Of a stretch of DNA of 64,000 bases, positions 9,161 through 51,837 are shown in pieces. Within the stretch, counting starts at the first letter, position 1. The number at the start of each line of letters is the position of its first letter. The translations under genes and the position numbers were made by a program. The notes under the pieces are model-generated. The model made no database searches and had not been told where the DNA came from. It saw only the letters and a program-made list of their open reading frames with translations. Origin of the DNA: an uncultured virus (IMG/VR IMGVR_UViG_3300022902_000012) (taxonomy: Duplodnaviria > Heunggongvirae > Uroviricota > Caudoviricetes); IMG/VR virus record IMGVR_UViG_3300022902_000012, positions 1 through 64,000 of that record; one strand, written 5' to 3'.

Positions 9161-10081
9161 ATGACCGCAGACGTCAAAAATCCCTCTTTCGAGATCGCCG
9201 GCCCAGGCTGGGGGCAAGCCCAAGATTGGATCGAAGAGCAGACCGGTGTGGCCGAGGATGTAGCTACTTTCGTGGATGGGGGGCGGCGAGTTCCGTTTGA
9301 GAGATATTGTGCTGGGTGGGGGTCAAACCAACTAGCTCAGGTAGCTTTTGGGGTTGGGGACCTGGTGGTTGCTATGTTTGAGAACAACAGCGAGCCCCAG
9401 GAGACCTACTGCACCTCCTGGGTCGAGCCACAGACACTGGTTGATCCCCTCAATCCCAGGTATAACCATGATGCCCAGTCCCAGTTTGGTGTATCCGATC
9501 TGGTTGAGGCTATGTTCAATGCCCTAACAGATGACTATGAGGGATACCAGGAAGGGTGGGAGGACAACGAGGACTCCAGCTACATGTTCCCTGGTGGAGT
9601 CCTGTGGTCCAAGTTCACCGAAGCATTGTCGCTGAGCATCCTGATGGGGGAGACGGTAGTTGTAGAAATCGATGGGGGCGCACCTGCTGTCTTGGTTTTC
9701 ACCAGGGACTTGAATGGAGCTGTAGACATTGCTCTGGACCTGACTACCCTTCTCGGCGCCGCCGGGTTTGGGGTGGCGCCAGATGATGACCATCTCGGTC
9801 TGCAATCAGCTACAGATGAGACCGGAACGGTAAAAGTGACCGGAGGGACCGCCCGGCTCGGATTCCCCTTGGATGCGGATATTGGAGTATCCACGCCGGC
9901 CACCTTCACCTTCGGGATCCCCAGGGATTGGGAGCACTACAGTACCGATTGGGAAAACAACGAGGACGCCGAAGATGGTTTCCCACCCCTCGGCGCCGGG
10001 GTGCTATCGGCGGCAATGTTTGATGGGGCTGCAAAGAGCTACGAGAATTACGGGGGGGCGTGGACTGAGACCTTGCCATAA
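9161..10081 (+). CDS. Acidic structural protein with internal repeats
   Basis: 'NPSFEIAG' start; several copies of an 'AMF.....E.Y...W' motif; inside baseplate operon. Confidence 0.6.
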   Translation: MTADVKNPSFEIAGPGWGQAQDWIEEQTGVAEDVATFVDGGRRVPFERYCAGWGSNQLAQVAFGVGDLVVAMFENNSEPQETYCTSWVEPQTLVDPLNPRYNHDAQSQFGVSDLVEAMFNALTDDYEGYQEGWEDNEDSSYMFPGGVLWSKFTEALSLSILMGETVVVEIDGGAPAVLVFTRDLNGAVDIALDLTTLLGAAGFGVAPDDDHLGLQSATDETGTVKVTGGTARLGFPLDADIGVSTPATFTFGIPRDWEHYSTDWENNEDAEDGFPPLGAGVLSAAMFDGAAKSYENYGGAWTETLP

Positions 10082-10123
10082 GGTAGGGGCTGGCCTGTAG
10101 AAGACGGGCCCTGGAGGTGTATC

Positions 10124-10846
10124 ATCGCTCAAGCTGACTGGACTGACTGTGACGGAAGTTCCCTCGATACCGCGTCGATCCTGAGAGGTGTATCGAATGC
10201 GTTCACCCCGCCGGCCGGACCGGACACCTTTGTCTACGGCTTTCGGGCGATCAAGTCCGCAACTGGGGCTGGTGGGAAACGGGTGGCGCTGGCCAACTTC
10301 CAACCGTTCACTGGGTCCCGAAAGGCAGGAAGCCTATCGTGGCCGATGAAGCGGTTCTCCTCGGGAATCAAGTTCGCTCCGTTCTTTGCCCTGCTCAATG
10401 ACACTGACCTGTCGGTGGCCCAGGGGTACATGGTAGCTCTGACCCAGGAGGCCAGTTACAAGATCGGTCTGTTTAAGGGGAGTCCCCTGAGTGGGTTTTC
10501 CTCTTCGGCATCCCACTGCCTTGCCAAGTCCTCGGCTGCCTTCGATGATGTCGGGGATGTGGCCGCGGCCTGGAAGCACTTGAAGCTCGATGTGCTAGTC
10601 AATCCCCACGGAGAAGCTGTCCTGAATGTGTGGGAAAACGATCTGGCGTCCAATGATGTGGACAGTCCGTCCTGGGCGGCCATCCCTGGCTTGTCTCAGT
10701 TCATCGACGACTCACTCGGGCATTTCTCCGGAGGGGTCCCGGTCCTTGATGGATTCTATGGGATCAAGGGGATGTACACCAATGGGCAGTCCGGTGACAT
10801 GGTCTTGTTTGGCCGGGCCACCGTCCACCGTCAGACTAGCCCCTAA
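10124..10846 (+). CDS. Structural protein, probably initiating at a non-canonical ATC (ORF track starts it at 10283)
   Basis: GGAGGT at 10113-10118, then ATC at 10124 giving (M)AQADWTDCDGSSLDTASILRGVS..., open and in frame to 10846; no in-frame ATG/GTG/TTG before 10283. Confidence 0.6.
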   Translation: MAQADWTDCDGSSLDTASILRGVSNAFTPPAGPDTFVYGFRAIKSATGAGGKRVALANFQPFTGSRKAGSLSWPMKRFSSGIKFAPFFALLNDTDLSVAQGYMVALTQEASYKIGLFKGSPLSGFSSSASHCLAKSSAAFDDVGDVAAAWKHLKLDVLVNPHGEAVLNVWENDLASNDVDSPSWAAIPGLSQFIDDSLGHFSGGVPVLDGFYGIKGMYTNGQSGDMVLFGRATVHRQTSP

Positions 10847-10868
10847 AACAGGCTGAAGGAGAGAGTAC

Positions 10869-11723
10869 GTGGCAGGGCCGCTTTGGGCATACCCGGGAGT
10901 CAAGGAAGGGAGGATCACTCCGGTCTTTTCCCAGGCCGGAGGCTCGGGTGGTTACGGGTATTCCCCTTACGTGGGCTACTACTCCCCCTACCCAAATTAC
11001 TACTACGGGTTCTCCAGCGACAAGGTTTTCTGCCTCGGTAGGGATTCAGTCCCGCACTCGCTTCGGAAGCTCCAAATCGGGGCCACGGCCAGTGTCCGGC
11101 AGTCAACTGTTGTCAGCGGAGCTGACAAGTTCTGGCTCTTCATGTTCCACATGCGGGTACCTGAAGGGCTGCCCGAGTTGGCACCAATCTGTTTGGGTGA
11201 GGAGGTCTCTTTTGTTGCTGGTGCCGGTGGGTCCCCCCCAGGGAGCCGGGGCCTCATCGATCCCGCTGATGGTCTGTCGGGGGTGATCCTGGATCCTGCC
11301 AGTGCCTCAGTATTCCCAGATGGATTAGATGGCCTGCAGCAGTGGTGCCAGATCTCTGGGGCAACCGACGGGGATAACAATGGCATCCACAGGCTGGTAT
11401 GCGTCCCGGAAGGTCAAAGAAGTAAGGTTGCTGTCATCGAGAATCAGAAAACGTTGCTCAGTGCCCCCCTCCCAGATACTGGGGCCATGATGCAGACCCT
11501 CAACGACAACGGCCTGCTCGGGGCTGGAGTTGACATCTCCCTACTTGGCGCCCGATGGGTTGGCCGGGCATATGCTGATTGGGGTACCGGCTACCAGGAG
11601 CGTGTGGCCCTCATCGAGTATAAGGGTGGGAATATAGTACGGGGTGCAATGTCCTTGCACCTGTCTCAGTACGTCGGGCCCTTAACTGTCAAGTTTGAGG
11701 TGAAGCTGGAGCAGGTGTCCTGA
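10869..11723 (+). CDS. Hypothetical tail/baseplate protein with a Tyr-rich insert
   Basis: 284 aa, AAGGAGAG RBS, 'GYGYSPYVGYYSPYPNYYYG'. Confidence 0.6.
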   Translation: MAGPLWAYPGVKEGRITPVFSQAGGSGGYGYSPYVGYYSPYPNYYYGFSSDKVFCLGRDSVPHSLRKLQIGATASVRQSTVVSGADKFWLFMFHMRVPEGLPELAPICLGEEVSFVAGAGGSPPGSRGLIDPADGLSGVILDPASASVFPDGLDGLQQWCQISGATDGDNNGIHRLVCVPEGQRSKVAVIENQKTLLSAPLPDTGAMMQTLNDNGLLGAGVDISLLGARWVGRAYADWGTGYQERVALIEYKGGNIVRGAMSLHLSQYVGPLTVKFEVKLEQVS

Positions 11724-13498
11724 TGGCGACTCCTATCCTTATCAAGACTCCAGCCCTGTACATCGACGAGATCCGGGGGTACAGCCCTGTAGGATCTCTG
11801 CATCTGGTCAATTGCGTTCCTGGGGGCCAAGAAGTAGATGTCCCGATCTCAGCATTGGTGTCGCTCCAGCTCGTCGGGACGGTAGGGATAGCTCTCGAGC
11901 CGGACACTATCATCGAGATCGTCCGGGGAACATCGGGCACCAGTGAGGTGGTGGTGGACATGGGAGCTGGCGGTGTGCAAGCCGGCTGGGCCGGCTCTGC
12001 AACCCTTCGGCAGAGTATTGGTTCTGCAGTCCTCGATGAATTGGTAGTAGCTGTGACACCAACGCTACCTTTCAAATCCCTGGAGGAGATCACCATTCGG
12101 GTGAGGGGCCAGCTGGTTGGCGGAGCTGCTGTCCTCGACGAACACTACCAGTTTACCTGTGAGGATCAGACATCTCCCACCATCTCCAAGGTCTTGTGGA
12201 TGACACCCGTCAAGGCAATGGTGGTCTTCGACGAAGTTGTCAGCCTTGATACTCTGTTTTCGGTATATGGAAAAGGCAACGTTGAGGTGGTCACCGGGCA
12301 TGTACGGCTGCGAGGGGAGAGCGAGCAGGCCCTCTCCATTGATGCTGGGATGGTCCTTGGGGTACGGGGATCCATCGAGAGCCTTAATAATTGGGACGAC
12401 CTGATCACCTCGACGGCAGGTTATGGGGTAGATTCCGGGGGGTACCTGGACATCACCCCGAACCGAGCATCCCTCCTTGTTGCCGACGATGGGATCGACA
12501 GGGACGAGTTGGGGCAAAAGACGTTCCAGCGGCAGATTCGTGCGGTGGTGAGTCATGTCGAAATTACGCACAGGATCGATGATGAAGGAGCTGGTGGGGG
12601 GGCAGGTTCCCCGGAGACCATTCAGGTAGCCTACGTCCCCCTGGTCAAAGACCTCCAGTTCGTTGTGGAGGAGGACCTACCAGAGGGGGTTGCCGCGGGC
12701 CAAGCCGTGTGGCTTGAAGTAGACGAACCTATGTCCCTCGGCCGGTTATACGCCATCAACTGGAATTGCTCCGATGCCAATGGGAACTGGGGAACAACCT
12801 CAATCAGTTTCGAGATGCCGAGTTTCCAGGTCAACCTGCAGGGGCTCGATTTCACCACCCCGGGTATCCAAAGCCCCAAGGACTTACGACAGGATATCGA
12901 GGAGGGAGAAGGGTCCCTCTACAAGATCTGCAGGATCCTGAACGATCCGATTCTCTTGGTCAGGTACTATGCCGAACGGATGAAGTACCTGGAAGACCCG
13001 TTTGGGTGCCCTGACGAGTTTCTCCCCTTCCTCCTGTACGATCTTGGAAATCCTTTTCGGTTCGCCCTGCGTACCTTGCGATTGGGTCGGTTGGCCGCTC
13101 TGTACTTTCCGGATCTGATGAGGAGGAGGCCCACGCCTGGGTCTATCGAAGACTTCATCTTCGGGGTATTTGGTATCCCCTGCAGGGTAGTCCCCTTCTG
13201 GACAGCACAGCACTGGCAACTGGATGACCCTGTGTACAGCCGCCTTGGGCACACAACCTCTCTGGCGCCCAGTTCTTCCTGGGAAAAAAACTGCTGGGTC
13301 CTGGAGCTACAACTGAACGTGGATGCGCAAACCGAGCTGGACATCATCGAGACCTGTGAGTGGTCTGATGGTTGGAACATGCACTTCATCGGCGTCATCG
13401 AGCCTGAAGATATCGCGGCCGGTGCCTTGCTCCCGGGTGGGGGATACTGGACACTAAACACATCAGCCCTTGGCTCCGGAACGATCTTGAGTCCGTAG
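11723..13498 (+). CDS. Tail protein with Ig-like N-terminal domains and a P2 gpI-like C-terminal domain
   Basis: 'DPFGCPDEFLPFLLYDLGNPF...LMRRRPTPGSIEDFIFGVFG' is gpI-like; 'YQFTCEDQTSPTI' is an Ig-like linker. Confidence 0.7.
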   Translation: MATPILIKTPALYIDEIRGYSPVGSLHLVNCVPGGQEVDVPISALVSLQLVGTVGIALEPDTIIEIVRGTSGTSEVVVDMGAGGVQAGWAGSATLRQSIGSAVLDELVVAVTPTLPFKSLEEITIRVRGQLVGGAAVLDEHYQFTCEDQTSPTISKVLWMTPVKAMVVFDEVVSLDTLFSVYGKGNVEVVTGHVRLRGESEQALSIDAGMVLGVRGSIESLNNWDDLITSTAGYGVDSGGYLDITPNRASLLVADDGIDRDELGQKTFQRQIRAVVSHVEITHRIDDEGAGGGAGSPETIQVAYVPLVKDLQFVVEEDLPEGVAAGQAVWLEVDEPMSLGRLYAINWNCSDANGNWGTTSISFEMPSFQVNLQGLDFTTPGIQSPKDLRQDIEEGEGSLYKICRILNDPILLVRYYAERMKYLEDPFGCPDEFLPFLLYDLGNPFRFALRTLRLGRLAALYFPDLMRRRPTPGSIEDFIFGVFGIPCRVVPFWTAQHWQLDDPVYSRLGHTTSLAPSSSWEKNCWVLELQLNVDAQTELDIIETCEWSDGWNMHFIGVIEPEDIAAGALLPGGGYWTLNTSALGSGTILSP

Positions 13499-17790: not shown

Positions 17791-18045
17791 TTATTCCGCC
17801 TCCTGTGCCTTCAAGACTCTTTTTCCTTTGGCAGTGATGTACCAAAGCAGGGCACCTCGGGTCTCCCCCTTTTTTACTGTCTTTCGGGACCTAACTAAAC
17901 CCTTGCCTCGGAGGCGGCGGAGGCGGCCAGCGACAGTGTTGTGTTGGGTTGGCCACAAGGCGGAAGAGATACAGTCCGTGGTGAGGCCGGAACGATAAGA
18001 CCCGAATGCCTTGAGTGTTCTAATCTGGGGGGCTTTGAGGATCAT
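17791..18045 (-). CDS. Winged-helix DNA-binding protein
   Basis: 'VAGRLRRLRGKGLVRSR...LWYITAKGKRVL'. Confidence 0.55.
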   Translation of the reverse strand: MILKAPQIRTLKAFGSYRSGLTTDCISSALWPTQHNTVAGRLRRLRGKGLVRSRKTVKKGETRGALLWYITAKGKRVLKAQEAE

Positions 18046-20279
18046 TTACAGTCCTTGATATTGGATGCGATCGAGGGTTCCATGGTGAGGTAGATGGGGC
18101 CGAAGTCAGACTGCATCTCGACCTTGCCGAGGTGTTTCTTGTAGATGGCAGCAGCTTCCTCAGCGTGATTGTTGCGGACCAGAGAGGCCCCCTGGTCGTG
18201 CAGGTGCAGGAGCATGCCGAACTCGTGGGGGAACTTCTTCGTCCCCTCCTCCATGATACGCCAGAGCCGGGAGTTGAACTGGTCGCCGCATTCGGTCTGG
18301 GTGTCCCAGTTTGCCAGTTCGGTGGCAGGGAGGGGACGCAAGGGGCAGTAGCGACGACGGCGGAAGGGTTTAATCTCCATGTAGCCATCCCGCTCTACCT
18401 TCTTCAGGTTCTCCTCGTGGTAAACGTAGACCTCGGACAGGGCGCCGTGGAACAGGCGGGTGTGAACCTCCTTGACCATGTCGAGGGTGAGCATGCGCCG
18501 GGTCTCCATGTCCACCCACTTGGAGTTGCGGGCGGTGGACTGAATCTTGAAGGGCCCCCCGAGGTACATGCCATTGAAGAACACGTTCTTCTCAACCTTA
18601 CGCAGGCGCCCGCGGTAGACGTTGTCCCAGCGTTCCCAGTTGTCTGGACCGAACACCTGCACGGCGCAGTAGGTGTGGGGGTCCACCTTGTCAGCAAAGT
18701 AGGAGCCCGGCTCGATTTTCCCCTGAAGTACCTCGATGAGGCGGCGGCAACCAGACCGGGCGGCCAGGCGTCGGAGCTCCTGTTGGTCCACGTCCCCACC
18801 CACCATGCACCAGCCCTCAGGGGCCTCGAAGATGTCGCGGTCGATGGCCCTCATGTTCTGCAAGTTCGGCGACGAGGTGAACCTGATTCCCTTCTGGTCG
18901 TAGGACTTCCACTTGGTGTGCATGTAGCCGCCGGTGATCGCCGCGGCGTAGCTCCCGCACTTCTTGTTCTTGATGATGTCCAGGAGCCCTTCCTCGAGGT
19001 CAGTCTCCGTGAACTCCACCTCGTCCATCACGTTGCCCTGCTTGTCCAGGATGGAGAAGACATCACAGTCGATCAGACTCCCGCCGGCCTCTTTGATCTT
19101 GGCACGTTCCTCGTCGGGGGTGTCTTGGTAGATGGTGGCATAGGCAGTGGACTCTTCAATGAGGGTGACGAGCAAGGACACGAAGGGGTGCTCGATGTGG
19201 TCGATGATGGCCTTATAGGAGGTGGAGGGTTCACCCAGTTCCTTGGTTGTCTCCGTCGGGACCAGTCCCAGGTTGTAAGGGGCCTGGGCGTACTTGGCGC
19301 CAAAGAGAGCCTCGGCCTTGTGGGCCGTGGACCTGTGGTTGAAGTCCGGCCAGCTGAGCCAGTCGCGAATTCTCTTACGGATGGCCATCATCTGCTTGAG
19401 ACGGTCGACTGCTCTGGCCCGACGCTTCGCCATGTTGACCGGGATGCCCCAGTTCTGCATGTTGGCTGCCAGCTCAGCGTATCGGGATTGCCACTGAATC
19501 AACTCCTGGGACATGCCGAGCTGCTGGATATGGGCACTGATCTCTGGTACCAGCTGGATGGTATAAAGAGCATCCTTGGCGTTGTAGATGAGGAGCTTCC
19601 AGGGATTCTTTATCTTGACGCCGTAGCCCTCGTTGGTCTTGTACTCCATCTTCCAGGCGCCCACCTGCAAGTAGGAGTGCCCGACGTAGCCGAGGTCGTG
19701 GTAGATGTCCGGCTGGACCAGATGGTGCAGGCCGATGGTGTCTCGGATCTCCCCTCGGACAGGCAGCCCCTTGCGTTCACAGACCGCGATGTCGTAGGGA
19801 GCGTTGTGGAAGACCTTGACGATCTCCGGGTCTGCCAGGATCTGCATGGTCAGCCCAACCAGGCACTGCTCCCAGGCCTCGGGCAGGAGCGACAGGTCCA
19901 TTAGCGGGAAGGCGACCGCCACGTTGTTGGGGGCCGCCTCAGCTATGGAGATCGAGTGGAGCCGGCACTTGGCGTAATCAAGGGAGGTGGACTCCACATC
20001 GATGGCCAGGGCCGGCTTGGCGATGAGCCAGTACTCGAGCCACCGTTTGGCATGCTCGAAGTACTCCACCGCGTTGACAGGCCCCCGCGGCAGCACACAG
20101 ATTAGGGTCTCCTCGTGGGTGATTCCCCCCCGAGAAATCTGGTGGGCCTTCTCGAAGTCCTGGGCAACCACCCCGGTGATCGGCTTGATCCCCTTGGTGT
20201 CCAGGCCCCGCTTGCCCCTTCCCTTCTTCGCTTGGTGGAAGATGGAGGCAAGGTGGTTCGTTGGAATCACATGGGCCAC
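18042..20279 (-). CDS. polA: Family A DNA polymerase with 3'-5' exonuclease; N-terminus carries the C-terminal part of a UDG domain
   Basis: ExoI 'AIDVEST', ExoII 'FHNAPYD', ExoIII 'YNAKDA'; 'SSPNLQN'; motif A 'DVDQQELR', motif B 'RKVEKNVFFNGMY', motif C 'LHDQ'. Confidence 0.92.
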   Translation of the reverse strand: MAHVIPTNHLASIFHQAKKGRGKRGLDTKGIKPITGVVAQDFEKAHQISRGGITHEETLICVLPRGPVNAVEYFEHAKRWLEYWLIAKPALAIDVESTSLDYAKCRLHSISIAEAAPNNVAVAFPLMDLSLLPEAWEQCLVGLTMQILADPEIVKVFHNAPYDIAVCERKGLPVRGEIRDTIGLHHLVQPDIYHDLGYVGHSYLQVGAWKMEYKTNEGYGVKIKNPWKLLIYNAKDALYTIQLVPEISAHIQQLGMSQELIQWQSRYAELAANMQNWGIPVNMAKRRARAVDRLKQMMAIRKRIRDWLSWPDFNHRSTAHKAEALFGAKYAQAPYNLGLVPTETTKELGEPSTSYKAIIDHIEHPFVSLLVTLIEESTAYATIYQDTPDEERAKIKEAGGSLIDCDVFSILDKQGNVMDEVEFTETDLEEGLLDIIKNKKCGSYAAAITGGYMHTKWKSYDQKGIRFTSSPNLQNMRAIDRDIFEAPEGWCMVGGDVDQQELRRLAARSGCRRLIEVLQGKIEPGSYFADKVDPHTYCAVQVFGPDNWERWDNVYRGRLRKVEKNVFFNGMYLGGPFKIQSTARNSKWVDMETRRMLTLDMVKEVHTRLFHGALSEVYVYHEENLKKVERDGYMEIKPFRRRRYCPLRPLPATELANWDTQTECGDQFNSRLWRIMEEGTKKFPHEFGMLLHLHDQGASLVRNNHAEEAAAIYKKHLGKVEMQSDFGPIYLTMEPSIASNIKDCK

Positions 20280-20509
20280 TATGGTTCTTTCCTCGGGACA
20301 TTGGCTTTGTTGGGGGTGGAGGCGAACCGGGTGCCCTTCTGGTTATACGGTTTCCAGGCGGGGCACTCAGGGGCTAACGCTTCGAGTTCATCAGCCCTAT
20401 AGGCTGCTATGAGCAGACCTTTAGCTAACTGACGGGCATCCTCTGCATCGATGACTTCCATCGATCCAGCATTGTAGTGGGAGGGATGGTCGACGGTTTC
20501 TTTACTCAT
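20279..20509 (-). CDS. Small protein with a DUF3310-like N-terminal fragment
   Basis: 'ETVDHPSHYNAGSMEVIDA' only; remainder does not continue the family; ATGA overlap with upstream gene. Confidence 0.5.
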   Translation of the reverse strand: MSKETVDHPSHYNAGSMEVIDAEDARQLAKGLLIAAYRADELEALAPECPAWKPYNQKGTRFASTPNKANVPRKEP

Positions 20510-20871
20510 GGTCTCCATGGTCTCCCGTTCTCGTCGGTGAGGGTGGCACCCTCAAAGGTAGACATTTCCCAACCTGAGAAGTCCTTCCCCTCGGTCTGCC
20601 CGAGTCGCTCAAGCCCTTTCCATACGTACAGGTGGTAGGCAAGACATTGCTCCTCGCTGACCACGATCTTGTCGGGCTTGCCCTGGCGCTCCCAGGCCTC
20701 CCTGATATCCCACTCAGGCAGTCGGTCGATGAACGTCAAAGCCTTGGAGTAGGAGGTGAACTTTCGCTGCTCATGACCCTCGGCGAGGATAGCCCCATGG
20801 GGTGTCCTCTGGTACAGACGCCAGCGACGATCCCTATCCTGCTGAGTGAAGATGTATCCCACGTCAGGCAT
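20506..20871 (-). CDS. Hypothetical protein
   Basis: MPDVGYIF... start overlaps the stop of the upstream gene. Confidence 0.5.
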   Translation of the reverse strand: MPDVGYIFTQQDRDRRWRLYQRTPHGAILAEGHEQRKFTSYSKALTFIDRLPEWDIREAWERQGKPDKIVVSEEQCLAYHLYVWKGLERLGQTEGKDFSGWEMSTFEGATLTDENGRPWRP

Positions 20872-21391
20872 TGTTTTGCTCAATCCGAGTTGAGGTTTGG
20901 AGGAGCCTGTCGTACCAACCATCCCGTTGCATATTGACGACAGGGATGTTGTGGGCACTGGCAATCCTTATAGCCTGCCCGGTGCCCCCTGTTCTGCGGG
21001 ATGTCTGGTGTCCCCGCTCTGCCCCGTCCGGAGTCCAGCAGACGACCAGGTGGGTTGGACTCTTGAGGTTCAACCCGAGGATCTGATAGCCGTTACGGGC
21101 ATGGAGCTTCTGAGCTTGCAGAGGACAGGCCCCCCAAGCTGGGTGATGGTGAGCAGCGAGTCGTAGGGCATATGCACGCTGGTCCTGTGATGCCCCCTCA
21201 AAGGAGTTCGTTGTATAGATGATCTTGTGGTTATCAGCCCCATCAGCAAAGGCTGTGTCAGCCCCTTTGGCCCCTCCGGATCTAAGCCACCACCCCCGGC
21301 CCAGTAGGTATTGTGCCCACTGCCTCATCTGAGCCAGGAACTCTGGGGGGGTCCTCCTTGAACCTATACCTGTATACATAAGGTTTCCCAT
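20864..21391 (-). CDS. SLOG-superfamily / DprA-like phage protein
   Basis: 'YTGIGSRRTP', 'LRSGGAKGADTAF', 'LHARNGYQILG', 'VVCWTPDG', 'GGTGQAIRIA..IPVVN'. Confidence 0.8.
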   Translation of the reverse strand: MGNLMYTGIGSRRTPPEFLAQMRQWAQYLLGRGWWLRSGGAKGADTAFADGADNHKIIYTTNSFEGASQDQRAYALRLAAHHHPAWGACPLQAQKLHARNGYQILGLNLKSPTHLVVCWTPDGAERGHQTSRRTGGTGQAIRIASAHNIPVVNMQRDGWYDRLLQTSTRIEQNNA

Positions 21392-21455
21392 CCGGCTATT
21401 CCTCAGATTTTTTAAGTAGGTGGATCATCATGTCCATGGCTTCCGATGGGGTAGA

Positions 21456-21986
21456 TCATCGGTGGCACTCCTTCCAGAGTTCTTGGAGGTCGATGGGATT
21501 GACGCTGCCGCGGTAGTCCCTGATGGATCCTTTGATGCCGGTCAAGGCTTTCATGGAGTGCTTGCCTACAGCAACGATGACGGTGTCCGGGTGGTCCTCA
21601 CTGACGGCGAGGAGTTCTCCGATGAGGCGCTTACGGCAGTGGTCCATTGCGAGCTTGTGCACCAGGTCGGAGGACAGGGTAGGGCCGCCGCCGGGTGGCT
21701 TGATGGGGCGCTTTCTGCACAACGTTGTGTTGGTTACCCAACAGTCCATCCGGGAGAAACCAGGGTCGCCGTTTTCGGTCAGGTACCACTGGGCTCTACC
21801 GGTTGGGCCGATGAAGAACTTCCGTTCTCTCTTGGGATTGTTCCCTTCCTCCTCAAATCCAGGCCCCTCTCCTACAAGGATAAGTCGGGAGGGGACTTTG
21901 CCGTCGGGATAGACCATGACGGACTTCCCATCATTGAGGGGGCATCCCTGGCAATCCGGCTGGGTTATGAGGCCGTGGTAGTACAT
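21456..21986 (-). CDS. Uracil-DNA glycosylase family 4, N-terminal part only (lacks motif 2)
   Basis: 'CQGCPL', 'LVGEGPGFEE', 'FIGPTG', 'VTNTTLCR', 'HCRKRLIGEL', 'IVAVGKHS', 'IRDYRG', then stop before the PTxHP motif. Confidence 0.85.
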   Translation of the reverse strand: MYYHGLITQPDCQGCPLNDGKSVMVYPDGKVPSRLILVGEGPGFEEEGNNPKRERKFFIGPTGRAQWYLTENGDPGFSRMDCWVTNTTLCRKRPIKPPGGGPTLSSDLVHKLAMDHCRKRLIGELLAVSEDHPDTVIVAVGKHSMKALTGIKGSIRDYRGSVNPIDLQELWKECHR

Positions 21987-21990
21987 TCCA

Positions 21991-22272
21991 TCAGCTCCTG
22001 AATTCTATGTTCTTGTAGCCAACTTCATCAGGGTCAGATACTGCATACCAGAGTCCATCTCTCTGTATCGCCTCGACATGCCATTGCTCAGGGAAAGGTC
22101 CATAGTTGAACTCCAGGACCTGCTGGACAACAACTTTATTTCCGGATGTATCCTTATAGAATTCTGCAGCCCTGACCCGATATATTTCCCCGACGGAGGC
22201 GCTCCAACCCCAGCTTGGCCTGTCAATTCCTTCAGCTGTCTCTAGATTAGGTTGGGTCAGATCGATGGACAT
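21991..22272 (-). CDS. Hypothetical protein
   Basis: 93 aa, AAGGAG RBS. Confidence 0.55.
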   Translation of the reverse strand: MSIDLTQPNLETAEGIDRPSWGWSASVGEIYRVRAAEFYKDTSGNKVVVQQVLEFNYGPFPEQWHVEAIQRDGLWYAVSDPDEVGYKNIEFRS

Positions 22273-22293
22273 GATGCTCCTTATGTTGAAAGA

Positions 22294-22322
22294 CCCCGGG
22301 GGGCATTGTGGACCCCCCGGGG
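22294..22322 (-). terminator. GC-rich hairpin after the SSB gene (probable intrinsic terminator)
   Basis: 10-bp stem ccccgggggg / ccccccgggg with 9-nt loop, followed by TCTTTC on the minus strand. Confidence 0.6.
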
Positions 22323-22356
22323 AGAGGACCGCTTTACCGGCTAAACCGTCTGGCTG

Positions 22357-23064
22357 CTACGGCTTGGGCGGGGGCGGAGGGGGCGGGGGAGCTGCCGCGG
22401 CGGCGCCATCCGCAGGCGGGGTAGGCGGAGGCGGAGCATCGGCGGGGGGAACCGGCGCCGGGGTGGGCGGCGGAGGGGGCGCAGCAGCCTCGGGCGGGGG
22501 GGCCTGGGACGGCTGGGGGGGAGCGGCGGTGGTGGCAGCCTCCTCGCCGGGGGTGTTGTCCACCGCGTACTTCCAGTTGGCATCGTTGAAGGGGATGCGG
22601 GTCCGGATGTAGTTGTTGGTCCCGTCCTTGCTGACGGTGAGGTAGGCGATGTACTTACGCCCGACCAGGACCTCGTTGTCCGCCGCAGAGCCAGCCTCAG
22701 CCAGCTGGGTCAGGTAGTCACGGCAGGCTTCCTCACCGCCCAGGCACGCCTCCCAGATCTGCTTGTAGGCGGCCTTGTCTCGGGCCATGCGCTCCTTCTG
22801 CTTGGGGGTGGCCTTGTCCAGGGTAGCCAGGTCACCGTTGCCGATCATGTCGGAGAACGGACGGTCCTCGCGACTGGTGTCGGCGCCGGGGCCCATCTGG
22901 ATCTCGGTGGCGAAGCGGGTGTAGGAGCCGGGACCATTCTTGTAGCCCCCACCCCCGATCTCAGTGACCTTCAGCAGGTAGAAGCCCTCGGGGTGGGCAA
23001 CGAAACCAGCGGACGAAGTGCCCAGGAATTCGTTGATGTCAAACGGCAGTGCATTCTTGTTCAT
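22357..23064 (-). CDS. Single-stranded DNA-binding protein (DUF669-like) with a Pro/Ala-rich tail
   Basis: 'HPEGFYLLKVTEI...GSYTRFATEI'; adjacent to Sak4-like ATPase; strong AGGAGG RBS. Confidence 0.6.
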   Translation of the reverse strand: MNKNALPFDINEFLGTSSAGFVAHPEGFYLLKVTEIGGGGYKNGPGSYTRFATEIQMGPGADTSREDRPFSDMIGNGDLATLDKATPKQKERMARDKAAYKQIWEACLGGEEACRDYLTQLAEAGSAADNEVLVGRKYIAYLTVSKDGTNNYIRTRIPFNDANWKYAVDNTPGEEAATTAAPPQPSQAPPPEAAAPPPPPTPAPVPPADAPPPPTPPADGAAAAAPPPPPPPPKP

Positions 23065-29002: not shown

Positions 29003-32000
29003 TTATTCATCAAAGGTTACATTTCGGAGAAAACGCCAAAATGGACTGTCCGGATCAAGGTAACCCGGCTTGGTTCTGGTAACGAACAGGCGGTCCTGGG
29101 CGCGGGTGACTGAGACATATAGGAGCCGGGTCTCTTCCTGAGACAGTTCGGGGTCCATCTTGGACTTGGCGCCGGGGAACCTGCCGTGCACCACATCAGC
29201 CAGGATGACGTTCCGGGCCTCCTTGCCTTTGAAGCCGTGGATGGTGCTCAGGGTGAGCACGTCCCCCTGCGACGGCCCTGCCTGGCCCTGGGCCTGCCTG
29301 TGCATCTCATGCATGCGCCGCAGCAGGTCAACCTGAGCCAGCAGCTCCCCTACGGTGTCGAATTCGGAGGCAAATTCCATGAGCTCTTCGAGCACAATGA
29401 ACGCCCCCTCGGAGCCCTCGGCCTTGGTCAGCCCGAACTTCTCGGCTAGGTACTCCACGTAGCCGATCTCATCGATGACGAACTTCATCATCTCGGCGGG
29501 CCCGCGGCCCTCCCGGCCCATGATCCTCAGCCTGATGATCAGCTCCTTCAAGCTCCTGAGAGCCAGCCTCTGTGGCTTGATGAGCCTGGCCTTGTCTAGG
29601 ATCTTGTCGATGAGGTCTGTCTCCTCAGAGCCCTCTGCCGCTGCGTACTGGGGCCTGCCTACGAACCTCTTGGGGACGTTCATGACAGCCCGCAGGGCGG
29701 TCCCGTCAACATCCAGGCCGGCGCCCACCCGCAAGTAGTTGAGCAGGTCCCGGGCCTCACGCCCATCCAGGATGAAGCCCCCGCACAGCTTGATGTACGG
29801 CACCTCGTTCTTGGTACACCAGATGGAGATCCAGTGCAGTACGGCCGCGGTCCTGGCCAGCACCGTGGTCTCCCCCAAGCCCAGCTCCTGAGCCTTATCC
29901 ACGATCCATTTGACCTCGTCCATCCGGCTCTCGAAGGTCTTGAACTCAATGGGCTCACCACCCTCTGCCCGCCGCGGCCGAATCTGACCTGCCAGGTGCC
30001 AGGGCCTACCCTTCACAACAGCCGAGCCCAGGGTGCAGATCTTGTCGGTGGACCGGTAGTTGTTCGGGAGCTTGAACAGCTTGGCCTTGTCCCTGTCGAT
30101 GAACTGCAGGATAACCCCAGGTTCCGCAGTGCGCCAGGAATACACACTGTTGTGGACAGCGATACCGTTGGCGAAGTAGTTGGTCGTTCCATCGATATCC
30201 AGGTCCCTCAATTCGAGAGGTTCTTCCGATCGGTAACCTGTCTTGGCTACAACCTCGTCGGGTGCTCCGTCGTCCCCCCAGATCCAGGTACCTGGAACGA
30301 GATTGGCCAGTGGCATAGCTGTCATTTTCTCCCCGCAGGGTCCTTTGGCACTGCTCAAGCTGACCCTAAGGACGGCACGAATTTTAGTTGCACCAGCAAC
30401 TATGTCCCCAATCTGCTCGGCAGCAGCATGTGCTTCCGCACCGGATGGGTATCTCCGACGAATCCTGGCTGTCCCGCGACGTCCGTCTCGGACAGAGATA
30501 CCTGTACAGGCTGTTATCGCCTCACGAATCTTTTGGGGCGCCAGTTCCTGTGATTCGCAGGTCAGCTCAGCCGGCCGATTGTTTTTAACACCCAATGTCA
30601 ATGTAATAATGATGCGCTTACCGACCTGACTTTGGGGTAAGTACGTGGGCCAGGCAAAGAGCATATGAAACAACTTGAGGATCTTTGGCCCCCCCTTGCA
30701 TCCGAATTCCTTGAATATGGCTGCAGCTCCGGCTTCCGACAGGCGTAGCTTCCGACCCACTGTCTTGAACGGGAGTGTAGGGACCTTGTAGCGTAAAGAC
30801 AGCTGCAGCTCTTGCAGAGCAGCATCAGCTGCCGTCTCATGACAATCGAGCAGCCACAGGGCATCAGCTCCTTCGTGCAATGCCCGAACGGATACAGAGT
30901 GACGGGCTGCGTTTTTTGCACCTTGGGTAAGTCCTATCCGAAACCCCATGTCTTTGCGCCACATGAGGTAGGTGTAGAAGCGGACATTGGAGTGGGGCAT
31001 GCAGGCAAAGACCAGGTGGTCGGAAGAGCCCTCTAGAATTCTCCCAGATGCTGTCTTGATCTTCGTTATCTCGGTCTTGTCTGTCGCTCCGGCATGTTGG
31101 ACTGTTCTAAACACCTGTTTGCCACCCTGGCATGAACCGACAGAGTCCCCGGCTTCGATATCCCGGAGTAGCACCCTGCCCCGGGTTTTTGTCTGAATCA
31201 TTGTCGTGTGGGGGTTCAGGCACTGGCTCAAGTCTCCGGCCAGCATCAAGTTCTGATCCCGGTCGGACCCACCCACCGTCGGGTAGATTCGGCTGGGCAG
31301 CCCCGCGGCCAGGCGCATCAGATCATGCTGGATGCCACTGCAGTCCTGAGCCTCATCCACGATGACCACGGACCACTGGGACCTCCACCAGGCCAGCAGG
31401 TCAGGACTCCCGATGAGCAGGTGCCAGACGAAGGACTGCACATCGTCGTAGCTGTACTTGGCCATGTCCCAGCGCAGCGCCTCGATCTCCTGATACATGG
31501 TCAAGGCCTGCTGAGAATCGATGGGCATCTTGTCGGCCAACCACGACTCAGCTATCCGCCGTACCAGCTCCCGGCCGTTGTCATTCAGACCAAACCAGTC
31601 CTTACGCCAGGGGACAGGCCCTGTGTTCTTGCACCGAGACATGAAGGTGGACAGCACCTCGTGGTCTACGATCATCTCAGGGATCACCTTCATCTTCTTG
31701 AGACGGTCGACCTGGGCACGCTGGGCGGCCGGCAAAGCACCGTCCTCGTCGTGCGACATGGCATCGAAGAGCCAGGGCGCCATCTTCGGCCCCCTGTCGT
31801 AGCAAAGCCCGTGGATGGTTCTGACCTCACATCCCTCGATACCCATCCCCGAGAGCCGCTCGATCATCTCCCCACAGGCTGCCCGGGTGAATGTGACCAG
31901 CAGTATCCGCCACGAATCCACCCCGGCCTCGACCAGGTCCCTCACCCGCTCCAGCAGGCACCGAGTTTTGCCACTGTTATGGACCAGGAACCCGGAGGCT

Positions 32001-32884
32001 TCGAAGTTATGATGTGGCCCCTTCATCTTGATGTCGTATGTACGCTGCGGCCCAGCCGGGGAGACCGACTTAACGATTCCGACCCGGGTATATTTGATGC
32101 CAAAGTTTTCATCTTTGCCATGAAGTCTGGCATGGGCCTTTTTCGACAGCAGCTGTAGATTCTCAGGGACATCATTGAGGGAGTCCTCATCCTTATGGTG
32201 GACCTCCAACTTAGGGTCCAGATAAGAGAAGATGGAGGGCAAGTCTCCCCGAGTTTTCAAGATTGCAACATAGTCGGAATAAGGAATCCCATTGATGGAG
32301 GCTTCCAGGACCAAACGAGCCCGCGGCACTTCCCAGTATCTGTACTTCTCCTCACGAATACGGAGGGTCCCGGCGGGATGATGGACATGGAGGGTAACAA
32401 CCCGACGTTTAGCATATCGGGTTCTCCCTTCCCCCTTCTTAGGGAGCATATTCCCGAGGAGAAGGACCTCATCGCCGGCGGACAGTTGCCCGGCCGGCTT
32501 TCCATCAATAAGGTCCGAAGGAGTCAGGAAGGGATGGTCCCGGGTACATGTTAATTCCAGGCCGCATCGGGTCGTAACGATGAGACAGTCCTGAACTCCG
32601 GAATCCACGATGGCCTCGATCTCGCGGTAGGCCACAACCCCCCCAGGCTCAATCGACTTGATCCTAGATGTCATGGACAGGTCCCGACCTATCGACCTCC
32701 TGCACGGGAGACCATTGAATTTCCGGTAGGCCTCCTCGATTGTGTAGGGCCGAGATCCGGGTCGTTGTCCCCTGCTAATACCCACGATAGCGTCGGCTGC
32801 GAGGCAACCTGGGTTGCCGGCCACCACCGAGGGGCCCAGGCGATGCACCGCTACTTGCTGCTGATCTTCATCCAGATTAATCAT
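29003..32884 (-). CDS. uvrD: UvrD/PcrA-family SF1 helicase precursor with two inteins (about 658 aa after splicing)
   Basis: GNPG|SGKT, 'VTFTRAA', 'TIHG', 'DEAQD', GDLSQ|SVYSWR, 'NYRST', 'LSTIHGFKGKE', 'EETRLLYVSVTRAQ'. Confidence 0.93.
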   Translation of the reverse strand: MINLDEDQQQVAVHRLGPSVVAGNPGCLAADAIVGISRGQRPGSRPYTIEEAYRKFNGLPCRRSIGRDLSMTSRIKSIEPGGVVAYREIEAIVDSGVQDCLIVTTRCGLELTCTRDHPFLTPSDLIDGKPAGQLSAGDEVLLLGNMLPKKGEGRTRYAKRRVVTLHVHHPAGTLRIREEKYRYWEVPRARLVLEASINGIPYSDYVAILKTRGDLPSIFSYLDPKLEVHHKDEDSLNDVPENLQLLSKKAHARLHGKDENFGIKYTRVGIVKSVSPAGPQRTYDIKMKGPHHNFEASGFLVHNSGKTRCLLERVRDLVEAGVDSWRILLVTFTRAACGEMIERLSGMGIEGCEVRTIHGLCYDRGPKMAPWLFDAMSHDEDGALPAAQRAQVDRLKKMKVIPEMIVDHEVLSTFMSRCKNTGPVPWRKDWFGLNDNGRELVRRIAESWLADKMPIDSQQALTMYQEIEALRWDMAKYSYDDVQSFVWHLLIGSPDLLAWWRSQWSVVIVDEAQDCSGIQHDLMRLAAGLPSRIYPTVGGSDRDQNLMLAGDLSQCLNPHTTMIQTKTRGRVLLRDIEAGDSVGSCQGGKQVFRTVQHAGATDKTEITKIKTASGRILEGSSDHLVFACMPHSNVRFYTYLMWRKDMGFRIGLTQGAKNAARHSVSVRALHEGADALWLLDCHETAADAALQELQLSLRYKVPTLPFKTVGRKLRLSEAGAAAIFKEFGCKGGPKILKLFHMLFAWPTYLPQSQVGKRIIITLTLGVKNNRPAELTCESQELAPQKIREAITACTGISVRDGRRGTARIRRRYPSGAEAHAAAEQIGDIVAGATKIRAVLRVSLSSAKGPCGEKMTAMPLANLVPGTWIWGDDGAPDEVVAKTGYRSEEPLELRDLDIDGTTNYFANGIAVHNSVYSWRTAEPGVILQFIDRDKAKLFKLPNNYRSTDKICTLGSAVVKGRPWHLAGQIRPRRAEGGEPIEFKTFESRMDEVKWIVDKAQELGLGETTVLARTAAVLHWISIWCTKNEVPYIKLCGGFILDGREARDLLNYLRVGAGLDVDGTALRAVMNVPKRFVGRPQYAAAEGSEETDLIDKILDKARLIKPQRLALRSLKELIIRLRIMGREGRGPAEMMKFVIDEIGYVEYLAEKFGLTKAEGSEGAFIVLEELMEFASEFDTVGELLAQVDLLRRMHEMHRQAQGQAGPSQGDVLTLSTIHGFKGKEARNVILADVVHGRFPGAKSKMDPELSQEETRLLYVSVTRAQDRLFVTRTKPGYLDPDSPFWRFLRNVTFDE
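30149..31222 (-). mobile_element. Intein 2 of UvrD (358 aa) with a non-LAGLIDADG, possibly GIY-YIG-like central domain
   Basis: Starts CLNPHT, block B 'GSSDHLVF', ends 'NYFANGIAVHN' before Ser; inserted in the GDxxQ|SxY motif. Confidence 0.9.
31976..32806 (-). mobile_element. Intein 1 of UvrD (277 aa) with an in-frame HNH endonuclease
   Basis: Starts CLAADA, 'TCTRDHPFLT', HNH 'EVHHKDEDSLNDVPENLQLLSKKAHARLH', ends 'HNFEASGFLVHN' before Ser; inserted in Walker A. Confidence 0.92.
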
Positions 32885-37918: not shown

Positions 37919-38171
37919 CATCGGAGGAATCCTCTTTGCGCTCAGCCGGGACCCAGAGGTGGAATGTCATGTAGCTCGGGAGGCATCCTCCATTACTGAT
38001 GGCCCTGGCTGCCTTTTCGATAGGTGTTGTGTCTTTGTCGGACGGGGACTGGCGGAGCAACACAGTGGCTTTTCCTTCCTCGCTCAGCCCCAGTCGGTCT
38101 TCAACAAAGGTCTGCTCAAGCAGGTTCTCGCACTCCAAGCACAGGCCATCTTCATCAAAGGTAACTTTCAT
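37914..38171 (-). CDS. Hypothetical protein between the two helicase halves
   Basis: 85 aa; ATGA overlap with the stop of the helicase N-half. Confidence 0.55.
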   Translation of the reverse strand: MKVTFDEDGLCLECENLLEQTFVEDRLGLSEEGKATVLLRQSPSDKDTTPIEKAARAISNGGCLPSYMTFHLWVPAERKEDSSDE

Positions 38172-40222
38172 GTCCTCACAACCTCCCCGCGGGCTAGGTA
38201 CCCACCCCGCTCCAAGTCAGCAATCTCGGCCACCCGTACAATAGGCCCCAGCGCGCACAGCATCAGGCAGTTCCGACCGTCTTGTCTCCCATCAGGAGTA
38301 GCTGTCAGGCCAATACGGCAGCGGGCCCTGAGGCGCCCCAGGACGGGCAAACGTGTATTACTCATGGCTGCATGGCAGTTATGGACTACAAATCCGTTAG
38401 CGGTGTAGGTGTGCAGCCCCTCAACCTCGAGATTGTAGACAAGACCGTCTGGGCACACCCTCTCGTATTCTTCAAAACTTCCTTGTTGGAAAACCTGAAT
38501 ACGATCCACCCGAGTCCAGCGAGGAACTTGTCTTTCTTCCGGTCCTGACCTCGCCTCTCTGAACTGTTGTGACTCTGGCCGTCTACCTCGATGGCTACCA
38601 TCAGATCCGGTTGGGCAATGTCGATCTTGTAATGGGTGGGATATCCCCTGGATTTCGGGCCCACCCCTTCTGGAAGGCCTAGTCTCGTCGGGACAATGTG
38701 CTCCATTCCCCAACCGAGTAAACCTGCCAGCATTCGTTGGGGGACTGTAGGTTCTCGTCCGTTGCCCCCCCTCTCGACCCCTTCCGGCCAGCCCCTCTCC
38801 CTCACCTTGGCGGTCACCAGGGCGCGAACCTTGGGATCCTTCATCGGGTTGTTCTTCCGCATTCGCTCGGATGACTTCTTTGACCACTCCTCGCGATGCT
38901 CCTCCCGGGTTCTGGCCCACACCTTCACTCGGTATTCCTTGACACATTGAACCGAGCAGTAACCCCCCTTTCCTCGGGAAAGTTGGTAGAGGGCAGACGG
39001 GCCCCGACTCCCCTGACAGATAATCCCCTTCCCGCAGTTTATGCAGTTCGTCTTGACTCTCTTCCTTCGTTCTTCCCTCCTCGTCAATTTGCATGTTTGG
39101 CAGAACAGGGATGCTCCGTTGTGATGTCTTTTCTTCCCTGTCTCCTGTCCGCATCTGTCGCAGGTGCCGTCTATCGATCTCTTCTGATGACCTTTTACTG
39201 TTTGATTCTCCATGCTTTCTGTACCCCTCTGGTTTGTGGTAGGGTACAGTGTATAGCACTCTGTCGTTGCGAGCAATCGTCTTGGCTGGTATCCAGCCTC
39301 GTTGGGTGAAAACGGGGTGTTCCTCGGTGCAGATGAATGAACCATCCTGCGTGGTAATCTGGATCAGAGATGATGGGGCTTTTCTCACGAAAGTTCCTGT
39401 GACGGTCCTCCTCTCAAGATTCCCAGATGTCTCATTGTAGGCACTGACTTGGTCCCCGATCTCAATGTCCTCAATGGGCTTTCCGTCAACCAAGGTCCCT
39501 GCTGGGAAGCACTCATCAATCACAACGCCGTCCAGGGCCCCCACAGCCTCCCCAGCAGTCCCTACGGACATGCACTGAGGCACCCCCTGCCCAACATCCC
39601 CACCAACCACATCCCTCATCTCAGGGATCACCCTGTCAAACACCTTCTGGGTCTGCCGAGCCAGCTCCTGGTTCACCACCAGGTACCCGACCTTCTCTAG
39701 TCCAAGCAGCTCCTGCATGCACATAAGCAGCCCCGCGGCCATCACAGTTTTGCCACTGCCGGTCGCAGCTTGGATCACACACCTCCCCCACGGTGCACAC
39801 AACCCCTCCACGATCCCCTCAGCTTGGTAATCACGCAGCGGCATCAGCAGCCCTTCATCCCGCAACGTCAGGACAGCTGACTCAATCCGCAGCTGAATCA
39901 GCTCGGGCAACCAGGGATTAACAACAGCCCCCCCAACACCCCGGAGCCGGAGCAGCATAGGCTCAGTCTCATGCACTATATGCAGCCAGCTCATCATGCC
40001 CACGGGTACCTGCCCACTCGACAGAGAGCCCGCCCTCAGCACCTCAAGGGCCCCCTGGACTTCCATAACCAATTCTTCAGTACTGACGCGCCCATCCCGC
40101 ATCTCCCGGGACCGATACCCCAAGGTCGTTCGCTCGTAGGCCGCCAACATGCTGACGAGGTTTGCCCTCCTACATCCCCCATGCCCCCAGGTATCCCCCA
40201 TCCCGTCGACCAGAACGATCAT
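38168..40222 (-). CDS. SF2 (DExH) helicase N-terminal (RecA1) half, intein-containing
   Basis: 'LRDYQ', 'AATGSGKT', 'VIDE|CH', 'IGLTATPDGRQDG'; ends at the interdomain linker 'GYLARGEVVRT'. Confidence 0.85.
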   Translation of the reverse strand: MIVLVDGMGDTWGHGGCRRANLVSMLAAYERTTLGYRSREMRDGRVSTEELVMEVQGALEVLRAGSLSSGQVPVGMMSWLHIVHETEPMLLRLRGVGGAVVNPWLPELIQLRIESAVLTLRDEGLLMPLRDYQAEGIVEGLCAPWGRCVIQAATGSGKTVMAAGLLMCMQELLGLEKVGYLVVNQELARQTQKVFDRVIPEMRDVVGGDVGQGVPQCMSVGTAGEAVGALDGVVIDECFPAGTLVDGKPIEDIEIGDQVSAYNETSGNLERRTVTGTFVRKAPSSLIQITTQDGSFICTEEHPVFTQRGWIPAKTIARNDRVLYTVPYHKPEGYRKHGESNSKRSSEEIDRRHLRQMRTGDREEKTSQRSIPVLPNMQIDEEGRTKEESQDELHKLREGDYLSGESGPVCPLPTFPRKGGLLLGSMCQGIPSEGVGQNPGGASRGVVKEVIRANAEEQPDEGSQGSRPGDRQGEGEGLAGRGREGGQRTRTYSPPTNAGRFTRLGNGAHCPDETRPSRRGGPEIQGISHPLQDRHCPTGSDGSHRGRRPESQQFREARSGPEERQVPRWTRVDRIQVFQQGSFEEYERVCPDGLVYNLEVEGLHTYTANGFVVHNCHAAMSNTRLPVLGRLRARCRIGLTATPDGRQDGRNCLMLCALGPIVRVAEIADLERGGYLARGEVVRT
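38386..39213 (-). CDS. Nested out-of-frame DUF559/Vsr-like endonuclease with Zn-finger and NUMOD-like regions, inside the intein
   Basis: 275 aa: CxxC motifs, 'GYCSVQC', 'RMRKNNPMKDP', 'YKIDIAQPDLMVAIEVDGQSH...DRKKDKFLAGLGWIVFRFSNKEV'; GAGGGG RBS. Confidence 0.85.
   Translation of the reverse strand: MENQTVKGHQKRSIDGTCDRCGQETGKKRHHNGASLFCQTCKLTRREERRKRVKTNCINCGKGIICQGSRGPSALYQLSRGKGGYCSVQCVKEYRVKVWARTREEHREEWSKKSSERMRKNNPMKDPKVRALVTAKVRERGWPEGVERGGNGREPTVPQRMLAGLLGWGMEHIVPTRLGLPEGVGPKSRGYPTHYKIDIAQPDLMVAIEVDGQSHNSSERRGQDRKKDKFLAGLGWIVFRFSNKEVLKNTRGCAQTVLSTISRLRGCTPTPLTDL
39248..39276 (-). promoter_or_regulatory. Putative internal promoter for the nested endonuclease
   Basis: TTGCTC (39276-39271), 17 nt, TACACT (39253-39248); 34 nt upstream of ATG 39213. 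Confidence 0.5.
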
Positions 40223-51802: not shown

Positions 51803-51804
51803 TC

Positions 51805-51837
51805 CTCTGGTGTACACCAGAGTGTACACTCTGTCAA
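51805..51837 (-). promoter_or_regulatory. Promoter with two overlapping perfect palindromes, HNH cassette 2
   Basis: TTGACA (51837-51832), 17 nt, TACACC (51814-51809); palindromes ctctggtgtacaccagag (51805-51822) and cagagtgtacactctg (51818-51833). Confidence 0.65.

Follow-up and report, generated by a model that had tools for sequence, protein, structure and literature searches.

A phage uracil-DNA glycosylase–DNA polymerase apparently encoded by two genes cut inside the glycosylase domain

The DNA considered here, a 64,000-nucleotide (nt) stretch of an uncultured tailed virus (IMG/VR record IMGVR_UViG_3300022902_000012, positions 1 to 64,000; hereafter the window), raises the question of whether two separated genes can make up one replication enzyme when the boundary between them runs through a folded domain. 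On its minus strand, an open reading frame (ORF) for a uracil-DNA glycosylase (UDG) of family 4 stops short of motif B, and a segment resembling the missing end opens a family-A DNA polymerase (PolA) ORF that starts 1,176 nt further on, behind three other ORFs. Fused UDG-PolAs have been described in SPO1/SP-10-like phages, in SP15-like phages (phiLo, YerA41; PMC13697223) and in N4-like cluster 17 (PMC10201439; see also PMC3201878), and single-chain enzymes of this kind were recently shown to couple uracil excision to replication (PMC13697223). We find that the split UDG-PolA is real, conserved and apparently undescribed. Our preferred explanation, to which we give a probability of about 0.68, is a two-subunit UDG-PolA with a composite active site, an enzyme that is probably whole only when the small chain, here called UDG-N, is docked on the polymerase.

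As a first reading of the sequence alone (the sequence-only reading) had noticed, the UDG-N ORF (21456..21986, minus strand, 176 amino acids (aa)) carries a family-4 UDG up to the RG strand and then stops, without the last strand, motif B and the C-terminal helix. It ends 17 residues past the Arg of IRDYRG, matches only positions 4-102 of the 141 of the Pfam UDG family and residues 17-149 of T. maritima UDG (1L9G), and its model (predicted local distance difference test score, pLDDT, 91.7) aligns to residues 3-148 of the 192 of 1UI0 (Z 13.5, root-mean-square deviation (rmsd) 2.8, 143 residues aligned). The chain contains four Fe-S cysteines (C12, C15, C90, C117), motif A, F58, N86, the RG strand and a terminal helix. 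All four cysteines, predicted to hold a 4Fe-4S cluster, are found in 24/24 orthologues, as are E40, P42 and G43 of motif A (GEGPG in the window, residues 39-43, 21858..21872, minus strand; position 41 is Glu in 11 orthologues and Gly in 10), Glu46 and the uracil-binding Asn, N86; Phe58 is present in 22 of the 24. Motif A of family-4 enzymes is defined as GE(A/G)PG (PMC4787834, which also treats residue roles at the active site), and the Asn and His that match N86 of UDG-N and His9 of the polymerase form the uracil-binding pair, the Glu being conserved in family 4 (PMC10359453). What UDG-N lacks is the HPAAVL-type motif B that a family-4 UDG carries in the same chain.

Motif A is also an intein insertion site in relatives of the window (in what follows, L and P numbers denote loci and proteins). 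Intein-sized insertions directly follow it in the UDG-N of L050:8347-9987, L049:3-1052 (LAGLIDADG and weak Hint matches) and P0070; in P0071 an insertion of this size lies apparently just ahead of the third Fe-S cysteine, and the UDG-N ORF L069:8295-9956 is also long, at 553 aa. Inteins usually occupy conserved working sites, and we count those after motif A, together with the apparent second site in P0071, in favor of a working, conserved site. A search for longer forms of the protein, which is weak evidence, returned two strong matches, both of them intein-bearing UDG-N proteins that end after the RG strand.

The polymerase ORF (20279-18042, minus strand, 745 aa) opens with a GTG that is the first start codon following the in-frame stop; a GAGGA 10 nt ahead of it (20290..20294, minus strand) is a putative Shine-Dalgarno site. 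According to profiles and model, residues 1-51 (20127..20279, minus strand) comprise the final strand of the UDG, motif B including His9 (codon 20255-20253), a basic insert of 14 residues and the C-terminal UDG helix. Pfam gave no match of any family to residues 1-42 of this protein alone and no UDG match to four relatives; only a profile of the clade detects the segment. With 27 polymerase N-termini, this profile ranked residues 156-186 of 1L9G first among 177,635 PDB sequences (E 0.0032), and 24 of its 26 PDB matches up to E 10 were family-4 UDG or UdgX chains. In hhalign the same profile paired with motif B from nine fused UDG-PolAs (95%, E 3.4e-8), and the UDG-N profile matched the part of the fused enzymes that precedes motif B. 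On both 1L9G and the fused enzymes the coverage by the two pieces abuts with zero overlap. The alignment check thus bears out the earlier claim that the missing part of the UDG sits at the polymerase N-terminus. His9 and Asp41 are invariant in 27/27 N-termini and Pro6 is kept in 26/27; motif B reads HLASIF in the window and begins with HP in 25/27.

The remainder of the ORF (18042..20126, minus strand) is a family-A polymerase with exonuclease and polymerase domains, recognized by Pfam and by a fold match to the Bacillus Pol I large fragment (Z 31.9, rmsd 3.1, 552 residues aligned, model range 55-745). The catalytic residues are in place, and D94, E96, D163, D236, D496, R560, K564, Y572, H694 and D695 are present in 20/20 aligned polymerases. 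In the O-helix, between K564 and Y572, residue 568 (window 18578-18576 region) is Phe here and Tyr in 17 of 20 relatives; the corresponding position influences dideoxynucleotide discrimination in family A.

The two halves might still have parted company, with UDG-N a free Fe-S protein that has a function of its own and the polymerase N-terminus a structural remnant that packs on the exonuclease domain. UDG-N is predicted well on its own, and helix 35-51 is ordered in the model of the lone polymerase, both as this reading would have it. Yet residues 1-30 are poorly predicted in that model (block pLDDT 40-46, against a better helix 35-51) and have no confident place there, while His9 and Pro6 within them are conserved as just described; both halves of one pocket are kept, and gene order and strand are fixed in all 25 loci described next. 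We regard the loss of contact between the chains as very unlikely.

The split is the trait of a clade. We classified 174 polymerases, namely P0001-P0033 (34 distant matches being left out) and 141 from a second homologue search: the split type, which opens at motif B, accounts for 52 and the fused type for 100, with 3 partial sequences and 19 that are truncated or unclear. A tree of 150 proteins (50 split, 100 fused), made with the columns of the N-terminal tag removed, has a core clade with support 1.0 that contains 42 split-type proteins, every one of which starts at motif B, and zero fused members. Every classifiable match better than E 1e-120 in the second search belongs to the split type; in the 100 nearest fused enzymes the segment lies within the chain. 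Where both halves could be seen, in 25/25 distinct core-clade loci, they form two ORFs on the same strand with UDG-N first, so that none has the UDG and the polymerase in one polypeptide; nine further loci lack the polymerase start. The same split, which the sequence-only reading had advised looking for in related phages, is therefore general in this clade, and it recurs with DNA context in four distinct loci outside it (L069/L161, L070, L158, L159/L160).

Some observations at the margins of this survey deserve mention. At a distant locus, a UDG ORF without motif B (L143:8843-9352) is accompanied by a separate polymerase ORF (9719-11743) that matches the profile from position 6; this could represent one more independent cut of the same loop. 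Motif B is likewise the starting point of P0160 and P0204, two proteins remote from the clade and with no DNA context. A stand-alone fragment of the polymerase fingers region (L031:477-929) lies about 900 nt upstream of a full polymerase gene, by duplication or mis-assembly.

Could a single chain be restored after all, by RNA splicing, ribosomal bypass, frameshifting or read-through, or protein trans-splicing? The gap in the window is a multiple of three, and the halves share a frame in L046 (gap 0) and in L029 (gap 6); read-through would be possible in these two loci only. But the 25 gaps range from -4 to 3,833 nt and fall in all three phases, and for this reason no single splicing or recoding signal can be shared by the clade. 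Seven tight junctions (-4, -1, -1, 0, 6, 13 and 13 nt), which by themselves occupy all three phases, leave no room for an intron, and the long gaps carry unrelated ordinary genes. A group I or II intron is rejected on the strength of these seven relatives with gaps of at most 13 nt and of Rfam, which gave no family at gathering score in the window and four chance-level matches in 19500-22500. A split intein is likewise rejected: Pfam has no intein match on either ORF, and the UDG-N tails of 17-33 residues, whose ends are unconserved, and the 3-8 residues that precede motif B are too short for intein halves. These results agree with the earlier remark that the break shows neither intein ends nor an obvious intron structure. 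In the contigs of four runs no sequence joins the two halves, a finding limited to contigs and weak for RNA. Taken together, we consider it highly improbable that the halves are rejoined into one chain.

Nor is the break an assembly error, because other DNA runs agree and one contig bridges both breakpoints: three other DNA runs match the window letter for letter, and the contig covers 20156-21701. An RNA run (X19) contributed three contigs of 151-188 nt (18070-18220, 20199-20386 and 21708-21858), one of which is colinear over the polymerase start; with a share of 0.09 they may be DNA, and we do not use them as evidence.

Is catalytic capacity kept in the divided active site? The sequence-only reading took the change from HP to HL in motif B to suggest altered or lost glycosylase activity. 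Loss is not supported, since the Fe-S cysteines, the motif-A Glu, Asn86 and the motif-B His are invariant; the residues named catalytic in the active phiLo enzyme are E53 and H178 (PMC13697223). Among the 52 split-type polymerases the motif-B dipeptide is HP in 47, HL in 4 and HT in 1, the residue after the His is variable in fused enzymes too, and the HL form is, by sequence comparison, local to the sub-lineage of the window (the window, P0002, P0003 and possibly P0012). The other half of the earlier suggestion stands better: altered kinetics are possible because Pro10 is replaced by Leu and Arg15 by His and because the N-terminal segment of the window carries the basic insert, and activity may be retuned in this sub-lineage.

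These same changes could be pressed further, to a rebuilt domain that is catalytically weak or retuned in the window, P0002, P0003 and possibly P0012 and whose main use would be as a subunit for template binding, processivity or strand displacement, a role of the kind proposed for the UDG domains of N4-like enzymes. The two substitutions and the insert would fit, and a processivity role has been proposed for UDG domains (PMC3201878, PMC10201439). N4-like enzymes, however, lose or delete their catalytic residues, whereas Glu40, Asn86, His9 and the four cysteines are kept here, and a His in place of the Arg at +6 also occurs in 5/81 fused enzymes and in 10/52 split-type ones. We think this alternative unlikely, though worth keeping in view. 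In favor of a two-subunit enzyme, UDG-N evolves much as the polymerase does: in the one usable pair of loci (L012/L034; dS, the synonymous divergence, is saturated or nearly so in 7 of the 8 closest pairs), nonsynonymous divergence (dN) and dS are 0.056 and 0.356 for UDG-N and 0.053 and 0.304 for the polymerase, that is, dN/dS of about 0.16 and 0.17. Across 23 loci, UDG-N and polymerase distances are correlated (Mantel rho 0.79, p 0.0002).

Under the two-subunit reading that we prefer, an ancestral single-chain gene for a family-4 UDG, an exonuclease and a polymerase would have been cut in the variable loop on the surface that connects the RG strand with the motif-B strand. Separate translation of the halves from one operon is suggested by the start sites and by overlaps of stop and start codons. 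Polymerase residues 1 to about 50 would then contribute the strand that UDG-N lacks, along with the motif-B loop and the final helix, docking into the Fe-S protein by fragment complementation and completing a uracil pocket with Glu40, Phe58 and Asn86 from UDG-N and His9 from the polymerase; free UDG-N would be inactive. By analogy with phiLo and YerA41 only, the rebuilt domain would be placed on the template strand in front of the fork, excising deoxyuridine during replication. The proposal, made from the sequence alone, that the UDG fold is rebuilt in trans is well supported by the exact complementarity of the pieces, their conservation across the clade and the exclusion of splicing and recoding; the docking itself we infer.

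Several observations weigh against this reading. Four core-clade loci (L023, L031, L035, L043) have a polymerase start and no UDG-N in the 58-1,812 nt available upstream. Motif B of the window departs from the family-4 consensus at the two positions named above, with Leu for Pro10 and His for Arg15; replacing the corresponding Arg of UdgX by Ala reduces kcat/Km by a factor of about four (PMC10359453). The Mantel correlation is what neighboring genes are expected to show from shared descent alone. Among 50,697 phage records, none exceeds 60% identity or 80% coverage, and no cultured member of the group was found there. Finally, no thymidine-modification or dUTP-pool genes were recognized in the ORFs scanned (about 64 of 114 kb), so that the context leaves a need for uracil surveillance unexplained.

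The loop that contains the cut is variable in fused relatives, in which the two profile matches lie 4-154 residues apart (median 26, n=81). Sister to the core clade is a group of 12 fused enzymes, several with linkers that look like the tail of a UDG-N joined to the beginning of a polymerase, and six further split-type polymerases branch below the core clade and these sisters: a fused clade is nested among split lineages. The key branch has a Shimodaira-Hasegawa-like approximate likelihood ratio support of 87. A single clade of all split forms (12 core and 6 basal rows) was rejected by the approximately unbiased test (p 0.013), the group having been named after the first tree. The pattern is hinting either at one old split followed by re-fusion (about three changes) or at a loop cut several times (four or five). 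A more speculative scheme, which we put forward tentatively and think unlikely, is a polymerase-gated glycosylase: with the catalytic His on the replicase, excision would start only upon docking of the Fe-S chain and would be tunable by the subunit ratio or by an optional third protein from the gap. In this scheme fission and fusion at the loop would be reversible, with a single cut at the base of a large phage group and a rejoining in one or more of the clades that descend from it.

The gap itself holds three minus-strand ORFs in the window: a SLOG/DprA-like gene (20864..21391, 175 aa; PHROG 768 E 1.3e-47, Pfam DNA_processg_A E 0.0016), a conserved small gene found by profile search (20506..20871, 121 aa, ATG at 20871) and a small ORF of 79 aa with a DUF3310-like start (20279..20518; 76 aa from an overlapping ATG at 20509). 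Of the names first given to these ORFs, SLOG/DprA-like is upheld, and DUF3310 is weak (E 0.028 over 20 of 60 positions, below the cut-off). The start/stop overlaps that were said to link the genes exist at three of the four junctions, among them the stop of the small ORF, which overlaps the polymerase GTG by one base; between UDG-N and the SLOG gene there is a gap of 64 nt. Most of this gap is filled by a mini-ORF of 15 codons (window 21459-21412, minus strand) with an ATGA overlap with the UDG-N stop, which may be due to chance.

That three genes were inserted together, as first supposed, is contradicted by the other loci: the middle gene is an old resident of the gap, and the other two were seen only in the gap of this genome. 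Its family (about 65-120 aa, pattern W...F.SY..A..AI) occupies 13/25 loci and 13/18 gaps over 100 nt, being the sole filler in 7, and is spread over the whole core-clade tree in a way that needs at least five changes. A profile from seven other gaps finds the gene of the window at E 0.011 among 7,090 ORFs, and all of its matches there under E 0.02 are the immediate upstream neighbors of a core-clade polymerase; with a seed omitted from the profile, 6/7 were found again (E up to 7e-4; 0.53 for L022). No match under E 0.1 was found outside core-clade loci among 30,880 further ORFs, and among the loci fetched the gene is absent from 70 fused and four basal split ones. Pfam, PHROGs, PDB and ESM Atlas offered no name for it above their bars, and the SLOG/DprA-like gene was not seen in the other gaps inspected. 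The ancestral order in the core clade is probably UDG-N, gap gene, polymerase, the SLOG and DUF3310-like ORFs being probably later additions in this genome. The gap would then act as a slot that gains and loses unrelated genes around one small gene, which would have been there since the base of the core clade and can be lost.

The product of the gap gene might even be an optional third subunit, a small protein of three strands and a helix that would bind DNA or cap the divided fold, in a way compatible with the two-subunit reading. Such a role would suit its tree-wide presence, its standing alone in seven gaps and its occurrence nowhere else in the fetched loci, and its ESM Atlas models loosely resemble DUF1508/YegP and integrase N-terminal domains (template modeling score about 0.5, below the bar). 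But it is missing from 12/25 loci and from the basal split loci, changes often on the tree and has no homology to the linkers of fused enzymes (best domain E 0.6), and its position may reflect plain operon history. On balance we find a third subunit doubtful. Other long gaps hold unrelated genes for a DUF1848 protein, a DHH phosphoesterase, a peptidase, a major-vault-protein homologue and a Dam-type methylase, and no nuclease was recognized in the gaps scanned. The vault-protein homologue (L006:6558-9275 (+), 905 aa; MVP_shoulder E 1.4e-15, Vault_3 E 8.2e-10) lies in the gap of a phage contig, and DHH-family phosphoesterases are present in the gaps of two distant loci (L005:7651-8631, L037:8789-9667).

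The window is part of a tailed-phage genome, in which tape measure, baseplate J and terminase genes were recognized; its sequence was found in seawater metagenome runs, and its polymerase is identical to that of a 114-kb viral contig. The UDG-like ORF and the polymerase belong to a minus-strand replication block with a SNF2-type helicase and an AAA_24 ATPase. A search for prophage or cellular copies in 185,579 species genomes gave 64 pattern matches and 0 relatives. Elsewhere in the window we noted an intein-bearing UvrD-type helicase and an intein-bearing DEAD/ResIII-type helicase (29003-32884 and 38168-40222 (-)), one intein having an HNH domain, two further HNH ORFs (48662-50236 and 50993-51829), and a PAPS-reductase-family gene and a B12-binding radical SAM gene (46163-47203 and 54845-56089 (-)) with possible DNA- or host-modification functions.

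Our findings suggest that a clade of phages builds from two genes, with a divided active site, a machine otherwise made as a single chain. The UDG domain's role for the polymerase, be it excision, processivity or strand displacement, becomes approachable by omitting a natural subunit. A cut inside a folded domain can apparently persist across a deep phage lineage and become a slot for gene insertion, and a natural complementation tag of about 40 residues with an enzymatic read-out could serve protein engineering. If fission and fusion are truly reversible, nature would supply fused and split versions of one replicase and, with them, a natural strand-complementation tag. A further warning concerns annotation, which gets UDG genes and polymerase starts of this kind wrong.

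In the literature searched, which covered few subscription papers, we came upon no account of a split within the UDG domain; the supplements of PMC10201439 and PMC13697223, outside the scope of that search, could list split members. The accessible parts of PMC13697223 (where 'split' occurs 0 times), PMC4889955 and PMC7824862 hold nothing on this split. The split clade shares with single-chain UDG-PolAs the domain order of family-4 UDG, 3'-5' exonuclease and family-A polymerase, but here there are two genes, cut inside the UDG fold, and the catalytic His is on the polymerase chain. It resembles the active SP15-like enzymes in keeping the motif-A Glu and the motif-B His (E53 and H178 in phiLo), and Foldseek pairs the UDG-N model with chain 9QHS of phiLo (E 0.002). 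Unlike them, its polymerases are 660-760 aa long without inteins and have none of the large SP15-type inserts, and no thymidine-modification context was seen in the ORFs scanned; inserts 1 and 2 and the C-terminal extension that mark SP15-like enzymes are missing from the window protein, whose 745 aa are taken up from residue 55 to the end by the Pol I large fragment alignment, while YerA41 has 1,306 aa. N4-like enzymes have lost catalytic residues that the split clade kept. The split clade is not a member of these single-chain subfamilies.

Comparable divisions are known elsewhere. Fractured genes with split inteins (PMC2677866) also have halves separated by free-standing genes in phage-like metagenomic DNA, but differ in having the intein halves that are missing here. 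The S-SBP1-like T7-like PolA (PMC10201439) is another family-A polymerase that underwent fission, with subunits thought to remain associated; that split runs between exonuclease and polymerase domains and leaves the genes adjacent, whereas this one runs within a domain and divides an active site. The poxvirus D4/E4 UDG (PMC13697223, PMC3201878) works in trans and is held at the polymerase ahead of the fork, as we suppose here by analogy, but it is a complete enzyme on a family-B polymerase, and UDG-N is incomplete and needs the segment borne by the polymerase. NrdA-a and NrdA-b of phage Aeh1, split by mobE (PMC3045599), likewise derive from a phage gene that was cut, with coding DNA in between and a non-covalent assembly that needs neither RNA nor protein splicing, an assembly that in our case would be the inferred one. 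In Aeh1, however, the enzyme is a different one, the gap is occupied by a homing endonuclease and the halves need new tails, whereas in the split UDG-PolA the gap content varies, seven loci are without a gap, and the tail is similar to the linker in the fused sister enzymes.

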